From assembly GCF_046105845.1 (NCBI RefSeq), contig NZ_CP151004.1: DNA of 64,000 bases; one strand, given 5' to 3'. The notes under the pieces are model-generated. The model saw only the letters and a program-made list of their open reading frames with translations, was not told the DNA's origin and made no database searches. Position 1 is the stretch's first letter; the number at the start of each line of letters is the position of its first letter. The stretch is from Escherichia coli. Its GTDB lineage: Bacteria; Pseudomonadota; Gammaproteobacteria; Enterobacterales; Enterobacteriaceae. Position numbers and translations under genes: made by a program. Shown piece after piece: positions 3,616-14,100 of the stretch.

Positions 3616-3654
3616 TGCTAACGTCAGATTGTTGACAAAGTGCGCGTCGTTCAT

Positions 3655-3752
3655 GCCGGATGCGGCGTGAACGCCTTATCAGGCCTACAAAAATCTTGTC
3701 AATTCAATATATTGCAGGACCACGTAGGCCTGATAAGCGTAGCGCATCAGGC
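3655..3752. repeat. BIME: pair of inverted REP elements
   Basis: gccggatgcggcgtgaacgccttatcaggcctac ... gtaggcctgataagcgtagcgcatcaggc, the typical REP palindromic unit in the fepA-entD intergenic region. Confidence 0.8.
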
Positions 3753-3780: not shown

Positions 3781-4410
3781 ATGGTCGACATGAAAACTAC
3801 GCATACCTCCCTCCCCTTTGCAGGACATACGCTGCATTTTGTTGAGTTTGATCCGGCGAGTTTTCGCGAGCAGGATTTACTCTGGCTGCCACACTACGCA
3901 CAACTGCAACACGCTGGACGTAAACGTAAAACAGAGCATTTAGCTGGACGGATCGCTGCTGTTTATGCCTTGCGGGAATATGGCTATAAATATGTGCCCG
4001 CTATCGGCGAGCTACGCCAACCTGTGTGGCCTGCGGAGGTATACGGCAGTATTAGCCACTGCGGGACTACGGCATTAGCCGTGGTATCTCGTCAACCGAT
4101 TGGCATTGATATCGAAGAGATTTTCTCTGTACAAATCGCAAGAGAATTGACAGACAACATTATTACACCAGCAGAACACGAGCGACTCGCAGAATGCGGT
4201 TTAACCTTTTCTCTGGCGCTGACACTGGCATTTTCCGCCAAAGAGAGCGCATTTAAGGCAAGCAAGATACAGGCCGCTCAAGGTTTTCTGGATTATCAGA
4301 TAATTAGCTGGAATAAACAGCGGATCATCATTCGACTAGAGGATGAGCAGTTTGCTGTGCACTGGCATATAAAAGAAAAGATAGTCATAACGCTGTGCCA
4401 ACACGATTAA
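3781..4410 (+). CDS. entD: Enterobactin synthase 4'-phosphopantetheinyl transferase EntD (209 aa)
   Basis: Within ORF 3640..4410; start placed at ATG 3781 (MVDMKTTHTSLPFAGHTLHF...), giving 209 aa; immediately downstream of fepA as in E. coli. Confidence 0.85.
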   Translation: MVDMKTTHTSLPFAGHTLHFVEFDPASFREQDLLWLPHYAQLQHAGRKRKTEHLAGRIAAVYALREYGYKYVPAIGELRQPVWPAEVYGSISHCGTTALAVVSRQPIGIDIEEIFSVQIARELTDNIITPAEHERLAECGLTFSLALTLAFSAKESAFKASKIQAAQGFLDYQIISWNKQRIIIRLEDEQFAVHWHIKEKIVITLCQHD

Positions 4411-4531
4411 TTGACAACTTCTGGTACGATTCGCCCGCAGCCATTGCTGACCGCGGGCGAAAGTGTAAAGCAGGTGCCTTACCATCCTGACCTGACAACC
4501 GGATATGCGGGGATTGCTCCCAACACAACGG

Positions 4532-4684
4532 CTACTTCTTCGGTTCGTAAGCGAGAACAGCCTTAAACTCAATATTACGTTCCTTCACCGTAAACTCACA
4601 CAGCGAGTCTCCGACCAGAAGCGTAAATCCCAGCACCGTTAAACACAGCACTATGACTGCCACAAGGGCATATTTCGTCAGCAT
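4532..4684 (-). CDS. hokE: Hok family host-killing membrane toxin (50 aa), copy 1
   Basis: [50 protein letters not shown]; small hydrophobic Hok-type peptide; start placed at the internal ATG of ORF 4532..4720. Confidence 0.85.
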
Positions 4685-4784
4685 GTTTATATTGCCTCCA
4701 TGCGAAGAAGGGACTACCATCCAAATTGTTCAGGTTTGGGTAGGTAGCCCCAGGGTTGATAGAAATATCGTCCTGGGGCTTCAT
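4596..4784 (-). CDS. mokE: mok (modulation of killing) reading frame overlapping hok, copy 1
   Basis: 62-aa ORF in a different frame overlapping the hok 5' region, the canonical hok/mok arrangement; conserved in copy 2. Confidence 0.55.
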
Positions 4785-5035
4785 CTTTCCAGACCTCAGA
4801 GTTAACCTGAAACCGGAAAGCTTCAGGCACCCGCCGTTATCTTACCCTTCCTCAGCAAAATAGCTGTTTATTTATACAGTGAATCCTGTTTCGGACTTCT
4901 GTTGGCAAAACTGATCATTGCCCTTAAAACGACATCGCCCGCAGCCATTGCTGACCGCGGGCGAAAGTGTAAAACAGGTGCCTTACCACCCTGACCTGAC
5001 AACCGGATATGCGGGGATTACTCCCCGCACAACGG

Positions 5036-5188
5036 CTACTTCTTCGGTTCGTAAGCGAGAACAGCCTTAAACTCAATATTACGTTCCTTCACCGTAAACT
5101 CACACAGCGAGTCTCCGACCAGAAGCGTAAATCCCAGCACCGTCAAACACAGCACTATGACTGCCGCAAGGGCATATTTCGTCAGCAT
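5036..5188 (-). CDS. hokE: Hok family toxin (50 aa), copy 2 (V8A relative to copy 1)
   Basis: [50 protein letters not shown]. Confidence 0.85.
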
Positions 5189-5288
5189 GTTTATATTGCC
5201 TCCATGCGAAGAAGGGACTACCATCCAAATTGTTTGGGTTTGGAGTGGCAGCCCCAGGGTTGATAGAAATATCGTCCTGGGGCTTCAT
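5100..5288 (-). CDS. mokE: mok reading frame overlapping hok, copy 2
   Basis: 62-aa ORF with 3 substitutions relative to the copy 1 mok; same overlap geometry. Confidence 0.55.
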
Positions 5289-5622
5289 CTTTCCAGACCT
5301 CAGAGTTAACCTGAAACCGGAAAGCTTCAGGCACCCGCCGTTATCTTACCCTTCTTCAGCAAAATGGCTGTTTATTTATACAGTGAGTCCTGTTTCGGAC
5401 TTCTCAATCCTCATTTGATCAACTGAAGCTGAACCCGTTTTTTTTCTGCATGCCTCAATCGTCAAAATTCTTCGCCACCAGTCCGCACTGCCATAACTTG
5501 TCATATTGCAAAATGTAGCCAATTTGCTTCAGTCACCATCATCAAAAAAAGAAACATTCCAGAACTTCCGCATCTCGCCCAGTCGCTCCCACTTCTATAC
5601 TGAATAGAAAACGCCAACATAA

Positions 5623-6750
<1,128 letters not shown>

Positions 6751-6815
6751 GCCGGGAATTGCCTTACAGAAGAATATCCCTGACAATGGTGTTTTAACTT
6801 ACATTTAACAATGTT

Positions 6816-7064
6816 ATGAAACACCCTTTAGAAACCTTGACCACCGCAGCAGGCATTTTGCTGATGGCTTTCCTTTCTTGCCTGCTGCTGCCCGCCCCCG
6901 CACTGGGGCTGACGCTGGCACAAAAACTGGTGACCATGTTCCATCTGATGGATCTTAGCCAGCTTTACACTTTATTGTTTTGTCTGTGGTTTTTAGTGCT
7001 GGGCGCTATTGAGTATTTTGTTCTGCGCTTTATCTGGCGACGCTGGTTCTCGCTGGCGGATTAA
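6816..7064 (+). CDS. ybdJ: Small inner membrane protein YbdJ (82 aa)
   Basis: ORF 6816..7064, hydrophobic 82-aa product; synteny. Confidence 0.8.
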
Positions 7065-7128
7065 ACGTCGATTATCGCCGAACTTCGCGGCATACTTTGC
7101 TTATTCTCCTTCGCCTAAAGGAACGTTT

Positions 7129-7497
7129 ATGGATAAGCAATCACTGCACGAAACGGCGAAACGCCTGGCCCTTGAGTTACCCTTTGTCGAGCTTTGCTGG
7201 CCTTTTGGCCCGGAGTTCGATGTTTTTAAAATTGGCGGCAAGATTTTTATGCTGTCGTCGGAGCTGCGCGGCGTCCCCTTTATCAATCTGAAGTCCGATC
7301 CACAAAAATCCCTGTTAAATCAGCAAATATACCCGAGCATCAAGCCAGGGTATCACATGAATAAAAAGCACTGGATTTCAGTGTATCCCGGCGAGGAAAT
7401 CTCCGAAGCGTTACTTCGCGATCTGATCAACGATTCGTGGAATCTGGTGGTTGATGGTCTGGCTAAACGCGATCAAAAAAGAGTGCGTCCAGGCTAA
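7129..7497 (+). CDS. ybdF: YbdF (MmcQ/YjbR-like DNA-binding fold protein), 122 aa
   Basis: Start placed at ATG 7129 ([19 protein letters not shown]...) inside the longer ORF 7009..7497, which overlaps ybdJ. Confidence 0.8.
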
Positions 7498-7590
7498 AGC
7501 GGGAATCTATAGCGCATTTTTCTCGCTTACCATTTTTCGTTGAACCTTGTAATCTGCTGGCACGCAAAATTACTTTCACATGGAGTCTTT

Positions 7591-8244
7591 ATGGATATCA
7601 TTTCTGTCGCCTTAAAGCGTCATTCCACTAAGGCATTTGATGCCAGCAAAAAACTTACCCCGAAACAGGCCGAGCAGATCAAAACTCTCCTGCAATACAG
7701 CCCATCCAGTACCAACTCCCAGCCGTGGCATTTTATTGTTGCCAGCACGGAAGAAGGTAAAGCGCGTGTTGCCAAATCCGCTGCCGGTAATTACGTGTTC
7801 AACGAGCGTAAAATGCTTGATGCCTCGCACGTTGTGGTGTTCTGTGCAAAAACCGCGATGGACGATGCCTGGCTGAAGCTGGTTGTTGACCAGGAAGATG
7901 CCGATGGCCGCTTTGCCACGCCAGAAGCGAAAGCCGCGAACGATAAAGGTCGCAAGTTCTTCGCTGATATGCACCGTAAAGATCTGCATGATGATGCGCA
8001 GTGGATGGCAAAACAGGTTTATCTCAACGTCGGTAACTTCCTGCTCGGCGTGGCGGCTCTGGGTCTGGACGCGGTACCCATCGAAGGTTTTGACGCCGCC
8101 ATCCTCGATGAAGAATTTGATCTGAAAGAGAAAGGCTACACCAGTCTGGTGGTTGTTCCGGTGGGTCATCACAGCGTTGAAGATTTTAACGCTACGCTGC
8201 CGAAATCTCGTCTGCCGCAAAACATTACCTTAACCGAAGTGTAA
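7591..8244 (+). CDS. nfsB: Oxygen-insensitive NAD(P)H nitroreductase NfsB (217 aa)
   Basis: [23 protein letters not shown]...; start at ATG 7591 within ORF 7540..8244. Confidence 0.93.
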
Positions 8245-8303
8245 TTCTCCCTTGCCGGGCATCTGCCCGGCTATTTCCCCTCAGATTCTCCTGATTTGCA
8301 TAA

Positions 8304-9599
<1,296 letters not shown>

Positions 9600-9601
9600 T
9601 T

Positions 9602-9645
9602 AAAAAAACCGCTCTCATCGAATGGATGAGAGCGGACATCGTTTT
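9602..9645. terminator. Bidirectional rho-independent terminator between convergent ybdG and pheP
   Basis: Hairpin ccgctctcatc-gaatg-gatgagagcgg flanked by an A-tract and a T-tract. Confidence 0.7.
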
Positions 9646-9666
9646 GTCGGATGTAGCGTGAATGCC

Positions 9667-11043
9667 TTATTTCCGACGCAGCGTTTTAAACGCTACAAAC
9701 AGGAATACAATCCACACTGGCAGCAGAATCGCTGACAAGCGCATATCATCCATCGTGCACATCAGCAGCAAAATCATGCCGAGGAAGGCGATGCAGAGAT
9801 AGTTGCCGAACGGATAGAGCAGCGCCTTAAACTGTGTTTCACGTCCCTGACGTCGCATCGCCGCGCGAAAACGCAGATGCGCCAGGCAGATCATAATCCA
9901 GTTCAACAGCAGCGTTGCTACCACCAGCGCCATCAGCAGACCAAACGCTTTTTGCGGCAGCAGATAGTTGATTAACACCACCAGCGAAGTGATGGCTCCG
10001 GAAAGCATCAGCGAGTTAATCGGCACGCCGCGACGGCTGACGCGAGTCAAAAACTTCGGTGCATTACCCTGCACAGAAAGGCCAAACAGCATCCGACTGT
10101 TAGAGTAAACCCCGCTGTTATACACCGATAATGATGCTACCAGAATGACGAAGTTCAGCGCAGAAGCTACCACGTTGCTGTCGAGATTATGGAAAATCAT
10201 CACAAACGGGCTACTGTTGGATTTCACTTCCACCCACGGATAGAGTGCCAGTAAAACCACCAGTGAACCGATATAAAACAGCAGGATTCGATACACCACC
10301 TGATTCACTGCTTTCGGGATGCTTTTTTCCGGATCGCGCGCTTCAGCCGCAGTAATCCCAATCAGCTCCAGACCGCCGAAGGAGAACATAATTACCGCCA
10401 GCGACAAAATCAGCCCATTCCAGCCGGTGGCGAAGAAACCACCGTAGCGCCAGAGGTTGTCGATACTGGCTTTCTCGCCGCCGTGACCAGAAAACAGCAG
10501 CCACAGGCCAAAGCCGATCATACCGATGATTGCCAGCACTTTAATCAGCGCAAACCAGAACTCGGTTTCGCCATATAAGCGCACGTTCACCAGGTTAACG
10601 GCGTTGATGATAATAAAGAAGGCGGCAGCCCAAATCCACGTTGGAACATCCGGGAACCAGTACTGCATATAGATGCCCGCAGCGGTCAGCTCTGCCATTC
10701 CCACCAGCACGAACATTACCCAGTAGTTCCAGCCAGAGAGGAAGCCCGCAAACGGTCCCCAGTATTTATAGGCAAAGTGGGCAAATGAACCGGATACCGG
10801 CTCTTCGACCACCATCTCGCCGAGCTGGCGCATAATCAGGAAAGCGATGATCCCGGCGACGCCGTAGCCCAGCAATACAGCCGGACCCGCCATCTGAATC
10901 GCCGGGCCAATGCCAAGAAACAGACCAGTACCAATTGCGCCACCCAGCGCAATCAGTTGAATATGACGGTTATGTAATCCGCGATGAAGCGTCGGCTCTT
11001 GATTCGACGCAGTATCTTCCGATACGGTTGACGCGTTTTTCAC
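9667..11043 (-). CDS. pheP: Phenylalanine-specific APC family permease PheP (458 aa, GTG start)
   Basis: Product ...KNASTVSEDTASNQEPTLHRGL...; start placed at GTG (plus-strand cac 11041-11043) to match the known MKNAS... N-terminus. Confidence 0.9.
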   Translation of the reverse strand: MKNASTVSEDTASNQEPTLHRGLHNRHIQLIALGGAIGTGLFLGIGPAIQMAGPAVLLGYGVAGIIAFLIMRQLGEMVVEEPVSGSFAHFAYKYWGPFAGFLSGWNYWVMFVLVGMAELTAAGIYMQYWFPDVPTWIWAAAFFIIINAVNLVNVRLYGETEFWFALIKVLAIIGMIGFGLWLLFSGHGGEKASIDNLWRYGGFFATGWNGLILSLAVIMFSFGGLELIGITAAEARDPEKSIPKAVNQVVYRILLFYIGSLVVLLALYPWVEVKSNSSPFVMIFHNLDSNVVASALNFVILVASLSVYNSGVYSNSRMLFGLSVQGNAPKFLTRVSRRGVPINSLMLSGAITSLVVLINYLLPQKAFGLLMALVVATLLLNWIMICLAHLRFRAAMRRQGRETQFKALLYPFGNYLCIAFLGMILLLMCTMDDMRLSAILLPVWIVFLFVAFKTLRRK

Positions 11044-11144
11044 GCCTTTCCCCTGTGTGTCTTTTTTGTTGAGGGGCACCTTTTAACATTTAGTGCCCAT
11101 CGTCGCAAGACACAATCCACACGGTTAAACCGGGTATCCTGCTT

Positions 11145-14100
11145 TTATTTCCGTACCCGATGTCGGTGCAGCCACATCAGCTTATACGCCGCCGGGATAA
11201 TAAACAGCGACAGCAAAGGCGCGGTGATCATGCCGCCAATCATCGGCGCGGCAATCCGGCTCATCACCTCTGATCCTGCCCCCGTTCCCCACAGAATCGG
11301 CAGCAGACCAGCGATAATCACCGCCACCGTCATCGCTTTCGGGCGCACGCGCAGGACAGCGCCGTGATACAACGCCTCATCCAGCTTCTGCTCGCTGAAT
11401 GTTTGCGGATTATTCAACGACGGCTCGGCCTCTATGGCGTGACGTAAATACATCAGCATCACCACGCCAAATTCGGCGGCGACTCCGGCGAGGGCAATAA
11501 AACCGGTGCCCGTCGCCACGGAAAGATGAAAGCCCATCCACCACAGCAACCAGATGCCGCCCACCAGCGCAAACGGTACGCTGCTGATAATCAGCAACGC
11601 TTCGCCCACCCGACGGAACGCCAGATACAACAGCACGAAGATGATCATCAACGTCATCGGCACCATGAGTTTCAGCTTATGGTTGGCGCGCTCCAGTAGC
11701 TCGAACTGCCCGGAGAATGCCACGCTGGTGCCCGGTTTTAACTGCACTTTTTCAGCTATCGCTTTTTGCAAATCGTGAACCACCGACACCATGTCACGAT
11801 CGCGGGCATCGATATAAATCCAGCTCGTCGGGCGCGCATTCTCGGTTTTCAGCATCGACGGTCCGGTAGAGACTTTAACGTCGGCCACGTCTGCCAGGGT
11901 GATTTGCTGCTTCATCGGCGTCAGGATCGGCAACTGGCGCAGCGCCTGCGGACTATCGCGCCAGCTTTGCGGATAACGCAGATTAATTGGATAACGGGCA
12001 ATCCCTTCCACCGTTTCGCCAACCATCGCCCCGCCCACCGCAGATGTCACAAACAACTGCACATCCGCCACCGTCATACCGTAACGCGCGGCTTTTTCAC
12101 GGTTAATCTCAACGTTGATATAGCGCCCACCTTCCAGACGTTCAGCAAGGGCAGAAGCCACGCCTGGCACCGTTCGTGCCACTTCTTCAATTTGCTCCGC
12201 CATCGCGTCGATATCCGCCAGCACAGTGCCGGAAACTTTAATGCCGATGGGGCTTTTAATGCCAGTCGAGAGCATATCGATACGGTTACGAATTGGCGGC
12301 ACCCACAGATTCGCCAGCCCCGGCAGCCGCACGGTGTTATCCAGTTCCTCGATGATTTTGTCCATCGTCATGCCTGGCCGCCACTGATCTTGTGGCTTAA
12401 GCTGGATGGTCGTTTCTACCATCTCCAGCGGAGCAGAATCGGTGGCGGTTTCCGCTTTCCCGGTTTTGCCAAATACCCGCGCCACTTCAGGTACGCTCAT
12501 AATCAGCTTGTCGGTTTTTTGCAGCATACTCGCCGCCTCTGCTGCGGAAATCCCCGGCAGCGTCGATGGCATATATAACAAGTCGCCTTCATTAATCTGC
12601 GGTAAAAATTCCCCGCCAACTTTATTGAGCGGCCAGAGAATCGTCAGCACCGAAAGCGCTGCCACCAGCAGCGTGGTTTTCGGCCAGTGCAGTACTTTCA
12701 GCAACAGCGGATGATAAACACGAATCAAGAAGCGATTGAGCGGGTTACTGCTTTCTGGCGGAATTTTGCCACGGATCCAGTAACCCATCAGGATAGGGAT
12801 CACTACGATCGCCAGCAGCGCCGCGCCCGCCATCGCATAGGTTTTGGTGAACGCCAACGGGCCAAACAGACGCCCTTCCTGCCCTTCCAGGGTGAAGATC
12901 GGGATAAACGACAGTGTGATAATCAGCAGACTGATAAACAGCGCCGGACCCACTTCAACAGACGCATCGGTAATCACCTGCCAGCGCGTTTTATTATCCA
13001 GCGTGGCGTCAGGATGCTGGTGCTGCCACTCTTCCAGCCGTTTATGCGCATTCTCGATCATGACGATAGCGGCATCGACCATCGCCCCGACGGCAATCGC
13101 AATACCGCCCAGCGACATAATATTGGCGTTCAGTCCCTGAAAGTGCATGACAATAAAAGCAATACACAACCCCAGCGGCAACGAAATAATCGCCACCAGC
13201 GCCGAGCGCACATGCCAGAGAAACAGCGCACAGACTACCGCCACCACAATAAACTCTTCCAGCAACTTGCCGCTGAGGTTGTCGATGGCGCGGTCAATGA
13301 GCTGGCTGCGATCGTATGTTGTAACTATCTCCACGCCTTCCGGCAGACTGCTTTTCAGCGTTTCCAGTTTGTCTTTCACGGCGGCGATCACTTCTCGGGC
13401 GTTTTTGCCGGAGCGCAGGATCACCACCCCGCCCGCCACTTCGCCTTCGCCGTTCAGTTCGGCAATGCCCCGGCGCATCTCCGGGCCAATCTGGACCTTC
13501 GCAACATCGCGCAGATAAACGGGCACGCCATTTTCACTGGCTTTTAAAACGATGTGATTAAAGTCGTCGAGCGTTTGCAGATAGCCGCTGGCGCGCACCA
13601 TATATTCCGCTTCCGCCAGTTCGATCGACGAACCGCCCGCTTCCTGGTTTGAAGCATCCAGCGCGCTTTTTACTTCGGCGAGACTGATACCATATTGCGC
13701 CAGGCGCTGGGGATCGATAACCACCTGATACTCTTTCACCACGCCGCCCACCGACGCCACTTCCGCAACGTCAGGGATGGTTTTTAGCTCATATTTGAGA
13801 AACCAATCCTGCAATGAGCGTAAATCGGCCAGATCGTGCTTACCGCTGCGATCCACCAGTGCATATTCATAGATCCAGCCAACACCCGTGGCATCTGGTC
13901 CCAGCTCGGCGCTGACTCCCGCAGGCAGCTTACCCTGTACCTGGTTGAGGTACTCCAGCACCCGCGAACGCGCCCAGTACGGATCGGTACCATCTTCGAA
14001 AATGACATACACATAAGAGTCGCCAAACTGCGAGAAACCGCGCACAGTCTTCGCGCCAGGCACCGACAACATGGTGGTGGTTAGCGGATAAGTCACCTGA

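Follow-up and report, generated by a model that had tools for sequence, protein, structure and literature searches.

A probably natural two-copy tandem of the chromosomal hokE/sokE type I toxin-antitoxin module between entD and ybdK in Escherichia coli

The single-copy hokE of Escherichia coli K-12 is a textbook SOS-regulated type I toxin locus. PMC2826370 lists hokE among the SOS-induced toxin genes with a Lex box and cites LexA control in K-12. HokE amplified from E. coli genomic DNA (MG1655 or LR27) has been used as a previously characterised toxic control, and Hok islets of 2-6 copies have been described (bioRxiv 10.1101/2025.08.07.668861). According to three sources, the chromosomal hok loci tested do not show post-segregational killing, and the K-12 loci are regarded as inactivated (bioRxiv 10.1101/2025.08.07.668861, PMC7232551, PMC12214031). 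The tandem arrangement of hokE is also already known. RefSeq annotates two hokE genes, and the arrangement has been published for strain NRG857c.

Here we describe such a tandem in a 64-kb stretch of E. coli DNA, which we call the window. Situated between entD and ybdK, the locus is very probably the chromosomal hokE/sokE type I toxin-antitoxin system in a naturally occurring tandem form with two copies, one of long standing in Escherichia and polymorphic there. We base this description on the anatomy of the sequence, on its predicted folds, and on how the tandem is distributed in the population. Each unit has a LexA box, an RF01794 leader, a mok-like frame, an antisense Sok gene with its promoter, a 50-codon hok, and a 5'-3' fold-back. 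An earlier note on this DNA had identified a hok/mok type I toxin-antitoxin locus, and Pfam, Rfam, and RefSeq all bear out this identity. The Pfam family PF01848 (HOK_GEF) is matched with E = 2.5e-8 over model positions 1-42 of 42. Rfam RF01794 is matched once per copy, at 4676-4832 (84.1 bits, copy A) and 5180-5336 (80.3 bits, copy B), against a gathering score of 59; both matches are full length (1-157) and on the hok-sense strand. Both Hok peptides are identical to RefSeq HokE alleles, and in many genomes the orthologous site between entD and ybdK carries the RefSeq annotation 'hokE (x2)'. The NCBIfam Hok models scored under their curated cut-offs, with 49.2 and 47.7 bits against 89 for NF007290 (HokA equivalog), and 40 and 38.9 bits against 73 for NF007279 (Hok subfamily). 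These two models represent other Hok subgroups; RefSeq names these exact peptides HokE all the same. The earlier note named neither hokE/sokE nor the LexA boxes, nor did it mention that the tandem is common, annotated, and published.

The tandem consists of two direct repeats of 470 nt each on the minus strand, which is the strand of the hok-sense genes of both units. Copy A (4431-4900) is proximal to entD and second in the direction of hok transcription, while copy B (4935-5404) is proximal to ybdK and first. A 34-nt spacer (4901-4934, minus strand) separates the copies, and the period of the repeat is 504 bp. The full alignment shows 16 differences between copy A and copy B, or 96.6% identity. 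The repeat finder output gave 4431-4730 and 4935-5234, with 98% identity and a spacing of 504. Tandem Repeats Finder reported no repeat here, because its longest period, 500, is below the 504-bp period. The tandem direct duplication with a 504-bp period proposed in the earlier note is thus confirmed by both the repeat finder and the full alignment, although its unit of about 472 bp and its count of about 20 differences must be corrected to 470 bp and 16.

Short reads can lead to mis-assembly of tandem repeats of about 500 bp, and the two copies might be a single hokE locus wrongly expanded in the assembly, or a duplication that arose recently in this genome alone. We consider this extremely improbable, as no other observation speaks for it. 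The copies differ at 16 sites, and the same junction and spacer recur in 2,505 complete genomes, as well as outside E. coli in other species of the genus. Furthermore, each copy is nearer to its relative in another strain than to its neighbor: the nearest orthologue of copy A is copy A of locus L002, with 7 differences, and that of copy B is copy B of L002, with 5. The existence of these A-like and B-like orthologues, with the same spacer, in other strains and in E. whittamii also bears out the earlier claim that the tandem is neither recent nor an artefact. On these sequence comparisons, the assembly-artefact reading is effectively refuted.

Of 5,426 complete E. coli genomes, 2,505 (about 46%) contain the copy-to-copy junction, with up to 3 junctions per genome. 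The junction was used as the query for counting because a whole-locus query fails, since a single copy aligns to both halves; the count includes some genomes in which IS421 interrupts the copy on the ybdK side. Identity to the locus in the window does not exceed 98.6% in any complete E. coli genome. Homologous spacers are found in all of the tandem loci sampled, including those of E. whittamii and Escherichia sp. MOD1-EC7003, and a search of the present-day flanks found no source for the spacer. The presence of the same spacer in E. whittamii indicates that the duplication is, as judged by sequence, old and polymorphic, with 1-4 copies.

The earlier note described an intact 50-codon hok and an overlapping mok frame in each copy, and we found that all four frames are open. 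The hokE CDS of copy A (4532-4684, minus strand) matches Pfam HOK_GEF and encodes 50 aa with V8, preceded by the SD GGAGG at 4695-4699. The CDS of copy B (5036-5188, minus strand) encodes 50 aa with A8 and is identical to K-12 HokE; the V8A difference between the two toxins had been read correctly. Among the 49 units sampled, 23 encode the HokE of copy A, more than any other HokE allele. In copy A, the codon for Tyr46 at 4547-4549, a TAC with G as the next base, is the reported TadA editing site, and hokE mRNA was reported to be 40% edited, giving Cys46 (PMC12214031). The mok-like frames have 62 codons each and are located on the minus strand at 4596-4784 in copy A, with a GAGG SD at 4794-4797, and at 5100-5288 in copy B, with the GAGG SD at 5298-5301. 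In both copies the mok-like frame overlaps hok; in copy A, the 89 nt at the start of hok are shared, read in a different frame. Mok substitutions do exist between the copies, but there are four of them (T14A, Y15T, L17P, and N49D) rather than the three first reported. The length of the mok-like frame varies among hokE alleles, being 62, 83, 22, or 17 codons, and the frame is not conserved.

Upstream of each hok, there is a motif match to the LexA (SOS) operator core, CTGT-N8-ACAG, at 4864-4879 in copy A and 5368-5383 in copy B. These are the only two matches in the window, and the core is present in 33 of the 33 units compared. The 20-mer at hokE matches 15 of 20 positions of the LexA consensus. 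A putative Sok promoter can be read on the plus strand at 4692-4720 in copy A, with a -35 element TTGCCT (4692-4697), a 17-nt spacer, and a -10 element TACCAT (4715-4720), and at 5196-5224 in copy B. The Sok +1 would then be at 4728, seven nt past the -10, and this spacing matches the annotated start of K-12 sokE. A generic sigma-70 scan gave no promoter at threshold, the Sok and hok promoters matching only about 8 of 12 positions. The Sok promoter segment is nearly invariant, with pi = 0.011 in 33 units. From the register of the K-12 sokE ncRNA (L001:2719-2778), the predicted antisense RNAs are 61 nt each, SokE-A at 4728-4788 and SokE-B at 5232-5292, both on the plus strand. The predicted SokE-A has a single-stranded 5' tail, a hairpin, and a U-rich end (-24.8 kcal/mol), and it spans the mok start codon.

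We propose the following mechanism for each module. The LexA operator would adjoin the hok promoter region. The hok mRNA, of about 400 nt, would fold its 5' end back on a 3' element, giving a closed molecule with the mok ribosome-binding site paired. Translation of the mok-like frame would be expected to drive the translation of hok, and the product would be the 50-residue Hok membrane toxin. Sok, of about 61 nt, would be transcribed within the leader from a promoter of its own and pair over the mok start, and the duplex would be destroyed by RNase III. We infer the 3' trimming, the refolding, the Sok-triggered RNase III decay, the SOS induction, and the TadA editing from the R1 hok/sok paradigm and the K-12 hokE literature.

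The predicted full-length hokE mRNAs are 402 nt each on the minus strand, 4431-4832 for copy A and 4935-5336 for copy B. The 5' ends were taken from the start of the Rfam RF01794 model; if the promoter overlaps the LexA box, the transcript would instead begin about 30 nt upstream of these ends. The MFE is -164.1 kcal/mol for copy A (z = -6.47 vs shuffles) and -172.8 kcal/mol for copy B (z = -6.97). In the MFE structure of copy A, a tac-like 5' element, GGGUGCCU, at 4825-4832 pairs with an fbi-like 3' element, AGGCACCU, at 4472-4479, with probabilities of 0.89-1.0; the corresponding minus-strand elements in copy B are at 5329-5336 and 4976-4983. This predicted closure consists of eight pairs in both copies, with probabilities of 0.88-1.0, and it holds in silico for three alternative 5' ends. 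The mok SD is predicted to be paired inside the leader hairpin of the full-length fold. When the mRNA is truncated at the 3' end in silico, the MFE structure of copy A changes to a tac/ucb-like stem, while copy B keeps the closed leader hairpin. With respect to inactivating changes in the hok SD or the fold-back elements, the fold-back pairing is predicted to be intact in both copies. The reading frames and most of the regulatory elements bear out the statement in the earlier note that both toxins look functional, but the 3' UTR hairpin of copy A is an exception.

This GNRA-loop hairpin, on the minus strand, has the form GGGG-N6-CCCC in copy B (5008-5031), where it corresponds to the IS186/IS421 insertion site in K-12 and other strains. 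In copy A (4504-4527), TT at 4522-4523 replaces CG, and the folding energy is -10.5 kcal/mol, compared with -18.3 kcal/mol for copy B. The TT variant was absent from all 7,965 places found in 5,366 E. coli genomes, where the best match was 54 of 56; the 56-nt 3' UTR probe had been searched against 5,426 complete genomes, of which these 5,366 matched. It is possible, though on balance rather unlikely, that one copy, most likely A, is weakened or decaying, since the CG>TT change would destabilise the hairpin that should protect the processed, translatable mRNA from 3' exonucleases, and toxin would then be made only from copy B. The energy difference and the private nature of the variant are consistent with this. 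In addition, the truncated hok mRNA of R1 needs the equivalent stem-loop for stability, and single substitutions that weaken it abolish toxicity (PMC9841398). However, the hairpin of copy A can still fold at the cost of one wobble and one mismatch, the remaining elements are intact, and its Hok is the commonest allele. The 3' ends of the copies also differ. Both have a terminal 13-bp hairpin, an inverted repeat on the minus strand at 4431-4460 in copy A and 4935-4964 in copy B. The hairpin of copy B is followed by a U-run, as the first bases of the spacer in the mRNA sense, UGUCGUUUUA, supply a U-rich tail, and the hairpin and T-run at 4964-4935 were flagged as terminator-like. The terminal hairpin of copy A has no U-run, which could be counted as a further weakness. 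But the U-run is missing from every entD-proximal or single copy in the sampled loci, so its absence is not a defect specific to this window.

The copies differ most in the 5' tail of Sok and its target. SokE-A and SokE-B differ at 6 positions, of the 16 in the whole unit, and all of these fall within Sok nt 4-18, while 39 nt of Sok are identical between the copies. For the 22-nt Sok tail, the predicted duplex energies are -42.8 and -44.4 kcal/mol for the cognate pairs and -25.8 and -25.7 kcal/mol for the cross pairs, a loss of about 17 kcal/mol. For the 11-nt seed of SokA, the predicted energy goes from -15.3 to -7.2 kcal/mol on hokB, while the SokB seed on hokA has two G-U wobbles and -11.8 kcal/mol. 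These calculations suggest that each Sok would prefer its own mRNA, and that cross-pairing would be only partial and asymmetric.

Does selection maintain this divergence? If it did, the co-resident copies would be insulated as two independently controlled toxin channels, in parallel to OrzO/OrzP and the Sib RNAs. We think that this is improbable, even though several observations point toward it. Besides the clustering of 6 of the 16 differences within 15 nt and the energy lost in the cross duplexes, the Sok-tail segment has pi = 0.189 compared with a unit mean of 0.047 (33 units), next to the almost invariant Sok promoter. In all 19 of the multi-copy loci sampled, the copies at one locus differ in tail class, with nine ordered combinations. 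Under random assortment, such mismatch has P = 0.003 for all loci and 0.016 for distinct configurations, with the loci being phylogenetically non-independent. Moreover, a variable region of 3 nt is enough for discrimination in Zor/Orz (PMC3919570). On the other hand, the inter-copy spacer is as diverse as the tail, with pi = 0.188, so the tail may be simply unconstrained. Any change in the tail is automatically matched on the antisense partner, and paralogues that separated long ago would come to have different tail classes with no help from selection. The 39 identical Sok nucleotides and the SokB seed on hokA also mean that cross-repression may persist. Since the tail is no more diverse than the spacer, its diversity does not demonstrate selection for Sok insulation.

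Hypervariability of the Sok tail by diversifying selection was considered as an explanation, and it was demoted to a minority reading on account of the equally diverse spacer. It is likewise doubtful that the 5' tail of Sok, together with its target, serves as a specificity 'barcode' that comes in at least four discrete classes across Escherichia, with the co-resident copies kept in different classes. If it did, a two-copy strain would run two insulated SOS-inducible toxin channels, and the cross-talk in the present tandem would be asymmetric, with SokB seeding on hokA and SokA not seeding on hokB.

As a discovery, the tandem hokE matters little, as it is real but ordinary, and it is annotated in thousands of genomes. 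It is K-12 that is atypical, with its one IS-interrupted hokE copy. Given that about 46% of complete E. coli genomes have the junction, studies of SOS, persistence, or RNA editing with hokE in wild strains need copy-specific probes. Furthermore, with the cluster of differences in the Sok tail, experiments could ask at little cost how much divergence is enough to insulate RNA pairs that are fully antisense in cis. For Zor/Orz and Sib/Ibs, unlike hok/sok, this question already has an answer.

The hokE/sokE of K-12 (b4415 / b4835) is at the same site next to ybdK, with a HokE identical to that of copy B and a homologous Sok register, leader, LexA core, and 3' UTR. The K-12 unit has 6 differences from copy B over the 390 nt retained before IS186. 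However, K-12 has one copy, in which IS186 in the 3' UTR hairpin parts the fbi element and the terminal hairpin from the gene, whereas the window has two uninterrupted copies. The mok-like frame of K-12 runs in frame into hok, with 83 codons, in contrast to the 62-codon overlapping frame found here. The AIEC strain NRG857c has Hok-2.1 and Hok-2.2 at the same locus with the same 504-bp period, at 577,301 and 577,805 (Bustamante et al. 2020, PMC7232551). The Hok peptides of NRG857c were reported to be identical, while those in the window differ at V8A (PMC7232551). As in the window, RefSeq has two or more hokE between entD and ybdK in many genomes, including O157:H7.

The hok/sok of plasmid R1 shares with hokE the Hok/Gef peptide, the mok-like leader frame, and a closure of the tac/fbi type with the mok SD sequestered. 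It also shares the cis-antisense Sok, with a promoter overlapping the hok SD, and the 3' stem-loop followed by the fbi element. R1 Hok is about 44% identical to HokE, and the plasmid Hoks in PLSDB share about 40-48% identity with HokE. Unlike the plasmid-borne R1 locus, hokE in the window is chromosomal and has a LexA box upstream. Cys46 is produced by RNA editing in HokE and is encoded in R1 Hok (PMC12214031). The chromosomal hok loci tested also differ from R1 in lacking post-segregational killing (bioRxiv 10.1101/2025.08.07.668861).

The zorO-orzO / zorP-orzP pairs of EHEC and ibs-sib are likewise near-identical tandem modules in one intergenic region, and the Orz- and Sib-type antitoxins, like the SokE copies, differ in a short stretch at the 5' end of the pairing region. 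However, Orz is divergently encoded, with 18-19 nt of complementarity, whereas Sok is complementary to its target in cis along its whole length of about 61 nt. Discrimination was shown experimentally for Orz and Sib, and for the SokE copies it is predicted from duplex energies. In tisB/istR-1 and symE/symR, as here, the LexA box is upstream of the toxin gene only, and the antitoxin promoter is LexA-independent (PMC2826370). These systems are unlike hokE in that they have unrelated toxins, different mRNA activation, and single-copy loci.

Two complete direct repeats of 470 nt lie 504 bp apart, at 4431–4900 (copy A, the entD-proximal unit) and 4935–5404 (copy B, the ybdK-proximal unit), with their genes on the minus strand and a 34-nt spacer between them (4901–4934). 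The tandem hok/mok duplication described in the earlier note is therefore present, although alignment of the copies gives 16 differences (96.6% identity) and not the roughly 20 claimed. Each copy has an intact 50-codon hok (4532–4684 and 5036–5188, minus strand), overlapped in a different frame by a 62-codon mok-like frame (4596–4784 and 5100–5288, minus strand). The Hok V8A difference is confirmed, but Mok differs by four substitutions, T14A, Y15T, L17P, and N49D, where three had been counted. Tandem Repeats Finder reported no repeat at the two copies because it covered only periods up to 500. Among the hokE loci compared in other genomes, the mok-like frame varies through one-nucleotide indels: it has 83 codons in K-12 and O157 copy A, where it continues in frame into hok, and 22 codons (with a stop upstream of the hok Shine-Dalgarno (SD) sequence) or 17 codons in other alleles. 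Either leader translation per se suffices, or many alleles are impaired. In many genomes, PGAP annotates the counterparts of an ORF antisense to hok/mok, which has 84 codons at 5009–5263 and 45 codons in copy A at 4505–4642 (plus strand), as 'hypothetical protein' or as pseudogenes with frameshifts. This ORF is most likely an incidental consequence of the hok sequence and not a gene.

Both copies are located between entD (fepA-entD, plus strand, ends at 4410) and ybdK (5632–6750). This is the chromosomal position of hokE/sokE in K-12, which has one hokE copy followed by IS186, whereas the window has two copies. Many genomes, O157:H7 among them, have two hokE genes here in the RefSeq annotation, and strain EC42405 has three. 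The window Hok peptides match Pfam HOK_GEF (E = 2.5e-8); that of copy A is the most frequent HokE allele (23 of 49 sampled units), and that of copy B is identical to K-12 HokE. Both fall under the curated cut-offs of the NCBIfam Hok models, which cover other Hok subgroups. HokE shares only about 40–48% identity with plasmid Hok proteins, so hokE is a chromosomal lineage. Pfam, Rfam, and the RefSeq hokE annotation agree that the type I toxin–antitoxin reading was real and correctly interpreted. In several tandem-bearing genomes (L011, L013, L019, and L020), copy A adjoins a gene for an SDR-family oxidoreductase and not entD, so the left flank of hokE differs among lineages. In the fepA-entD interval, at 3625–3731, Rfam hits to ES036/CssrF (36.9 bits; gathering score 37.6) and to the REP-like element naRNA4 fell below threshold, and a mechanical ORF of 256 codons from 3640 exceeds the RefSeq-annotated 621-bp entD.

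Rfam RF01794 ('sok') matches 4676–4832 at 84.1 bits and 5180–5336 at 80.3 bits (gathering score 59). Since these matches are on the hok-sense strand and end at the hok start codon, they represent the hok leader, not Sok, and should not be used as 'sok antitoxin' coordinates or strand. Sok was positioned from the K-12 sokE annotation, and adding 504 to the coordinates of copy A parts gives those of copy B. The predicted Sok of copy A (4728–4788, plus strand) has a conserved promoter (–35 TTGCCT, 4692–4697; 17-nt spacer; –10 TACCAT, 4715–4720) and begins with an unpaired 5' tail of about 10 nt that leads into a hairpin and a U-rich end, with the mok start codon (4782–4784) within its span. The mRNA was folded as 402 nt, from the Rfam anchor at 4832 to the unit end. 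In the predicted fold, the 5' 8 nt (GGGUGCCU) pair with AGGCACCU at 4472–4479, with 5'–3' pair probabilities of 0.88–1.0 in both copies, and the mok SD GAGG (4794–4797) is sequestered within the leader hairpin; three alternative 5' ends leave both features unaffected. The mRNAs are much more stable than shuffled controls (z = –6.5 and –7.0). Downstream of hok are a GNRA-loop hairpin (4504–4527 in copy A), an element like fbi, the 3' element whose pairing closes the mRNA, and a terminal 13-bp hairpin (4431–4460 in copy A). In K-12 and three sampled genomes (L001, L021, L024, and L025), IS186/IS421 is inserted in one or both copies at the identical point of the GGGG-N6-CCCC 3' UTR hairpin (5008–5031; 4504–4527), a motif in keeping with the known preference of IS186 for G-run/C-run targets.

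A 15-nt stretch (4731–4745; 5235–5249), corresponding to Sok nt 4–18 and its target, holds six of the 16 differences; others lie within the 50 nt nearest the promoter, within hok (V8A plus one synonymous change), and within the 3' UTR. A C/T difference at 4470/4974, two bases 3' of the fbi element, would change a G-C to a G-U pair if the mRNA starts at least two bases upstream of the anchor. In hok/sok, antisense binding is accelerated by the U-turns that YUNR motifs form. The Sok-target hairpin loop of copy A (4727–4735, minus strand) has such a motif, CUGA, while that of copy B (5231–5239, minus strand) is CCCAAACAA, without U, so Sok may capture the two mRNAs at unequal rates. Two adjacent differences at 4522–4523, TT in copy A and CG in copy B, weaken the 3' UTR hairpin of copy A to –10.5 kcal/mol, compared with –18.3 in copy B. 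Across 5,366 complete E. coli genomes, none of the 7,965 sites that matched has this TT, which reduces the G-run of the hairpin to three. As single substitutions that weaken the equivalent R1 stem-loop abolish toxicity (PMC9841398), copy A may be attenuated.

At their 5' ends, both units have the invariant block CTGTATAAATAAACAG, a CTGT-N8-ACAG LexA core (4864–4879 and 5368–5383). The 64-kb window has no further match to this core, which is kept in 33 of 33 compared units. In both copies, the Tyr46 codon TAC is followed by G (4547–4549 and 5051–5053), the site at which about 40% of hokE mRNA reportedly undergoes A-to-I editing that yields a Cys codon (PMC12214031). The earlier note overlooked both the core and the editing site. 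In the mechanism that we infer from the R1 hok/sok and K-12 hokE literature, LexA would repress hok transcription, and the full-length mRNA would be inert until slow 3' trimming back to the GNRA hairpin allowed the 5' end to refold, making the mok SD accessible along with the Sok target. Sok, which is abundant and unstable, would pair with the target, and RNase III would destroy the duplex. A drop in Sok, or a rise in hok mRNA after DNA damage, would then permit translation of mok and hok, and Hok, partly Y46C through TadA recoding, would enter the inner membrane. Chromosomal hok loci that have been tested did not mediate post-segregational killing (bioRxiv 10.1101/2025.08.07.668861).

The duplex energies of cognate Sok–hok pairs are –42.8 (copy A) and –44.4 kcal/mol (copy B) for the 22-nt tail and –15.3 and –15.0 kcal/mol for the 11-nt seed. 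The cross pairs give –25.8 and –7.2 kcal/mol, with two seed mismatches, for SokA (from copy A) on the copy B mRNA, and –25.7 and –11.8 kcal/mol, with two G-U wobbles, for SokB on the copy A mRNA. The other 39 nt of Sok do not differ. By analogy with OrzO/OrzP, in which specificity is set by a variable region of 3 nt (PMC3919570), insulation of the copies would most likely be partial and asymmetric. In a comparison of 33 units, π is 0.189 for the tail segment, 0.047 on average for the unit, and 0.011 for the adjoining Sok promoter and hok SD. There are four tail classes, and co-resident copies are of unlike class in all 19 sampled multi-copy loci, in nine ordered combinations (random assortment, P = 0.003 for all loci and 0.016 for distinct configurations, the loci being phylogenetically non-independent). 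Against a role of selection in this pattern, the spacer is equally diverse (π = 0.188), and the data do not separate drift from selection. Diversity is lower at the third codon positions of hok (0.068) and in the flank toward ybdK (0.063). Given its equality with the spacer, the tail behaves like unconstrained sequence, and any change in it is matched automatically in the antisense partner. That the tails are specificity barcodes insulating co-resident copies, the sole reading with some novelty, thus has suggestive but confounded support, and we consider it rather unlikely.

Copy number across E. coli was surveyed with a 95-nt query across the copy-to-copy boundary. Of 5,426 complete E. coli genomes, 2,643 contain this junction (2,505 of them at ≥80% coverage), up to three times per genome; the count includes some genomes in which IS421 truncates the ybdK-side copy. 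Among GTDB species representatives, E. whittamii, Escherichia sp. MOD1-EC7003, and a second E. coli-labelled representative have the tandem, and E. albertii and Escherichia sp. E1V33 have one copy. E. whittamii has about 850 bp extra between the ybdK-side copy and ybdK (L017, 3665–4523). The spacer is homologous across every tandem locus and does not derive from the present flanks, which argues for one old origin of the tandem, followed by loss and gain via unequal recombination. The units are mosaic across strains; the nearest relatives elsewhere differ from copy A at 7 and from copy B at 5 positions, against 16 between the copies. At both the hokE locus (4300–5700) and the 8 kb of flanking core genes from ybdK to cusA (5600–13600), the best identity of any of the 5,426 genomes to the window is 98.6–98.7%, so complete E. 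coli assemblies apparently contain few members of the Escherichia lineage to which the source belongs.

The tandem hokE is a common polymorphism of a known locus, already annotated and published. In AIEC NRG857c, the duplicated Hok-2.1 and Hok-2.2 start 504 bp apart (PMC7232551), as in the window. Tandem duplication is a recognized hallmark of type I loci (PMC2887945), and 10% of Hok genes are reported to be in islets of 2–6 copies arising from local duplication (bioRxiv 10.1101/2025.08.07.668861). The predicted fold of the window units has the same closed architecture, by pairing of the 5' tac and 3' fbi elements, as R1 hok (PMC9841398).
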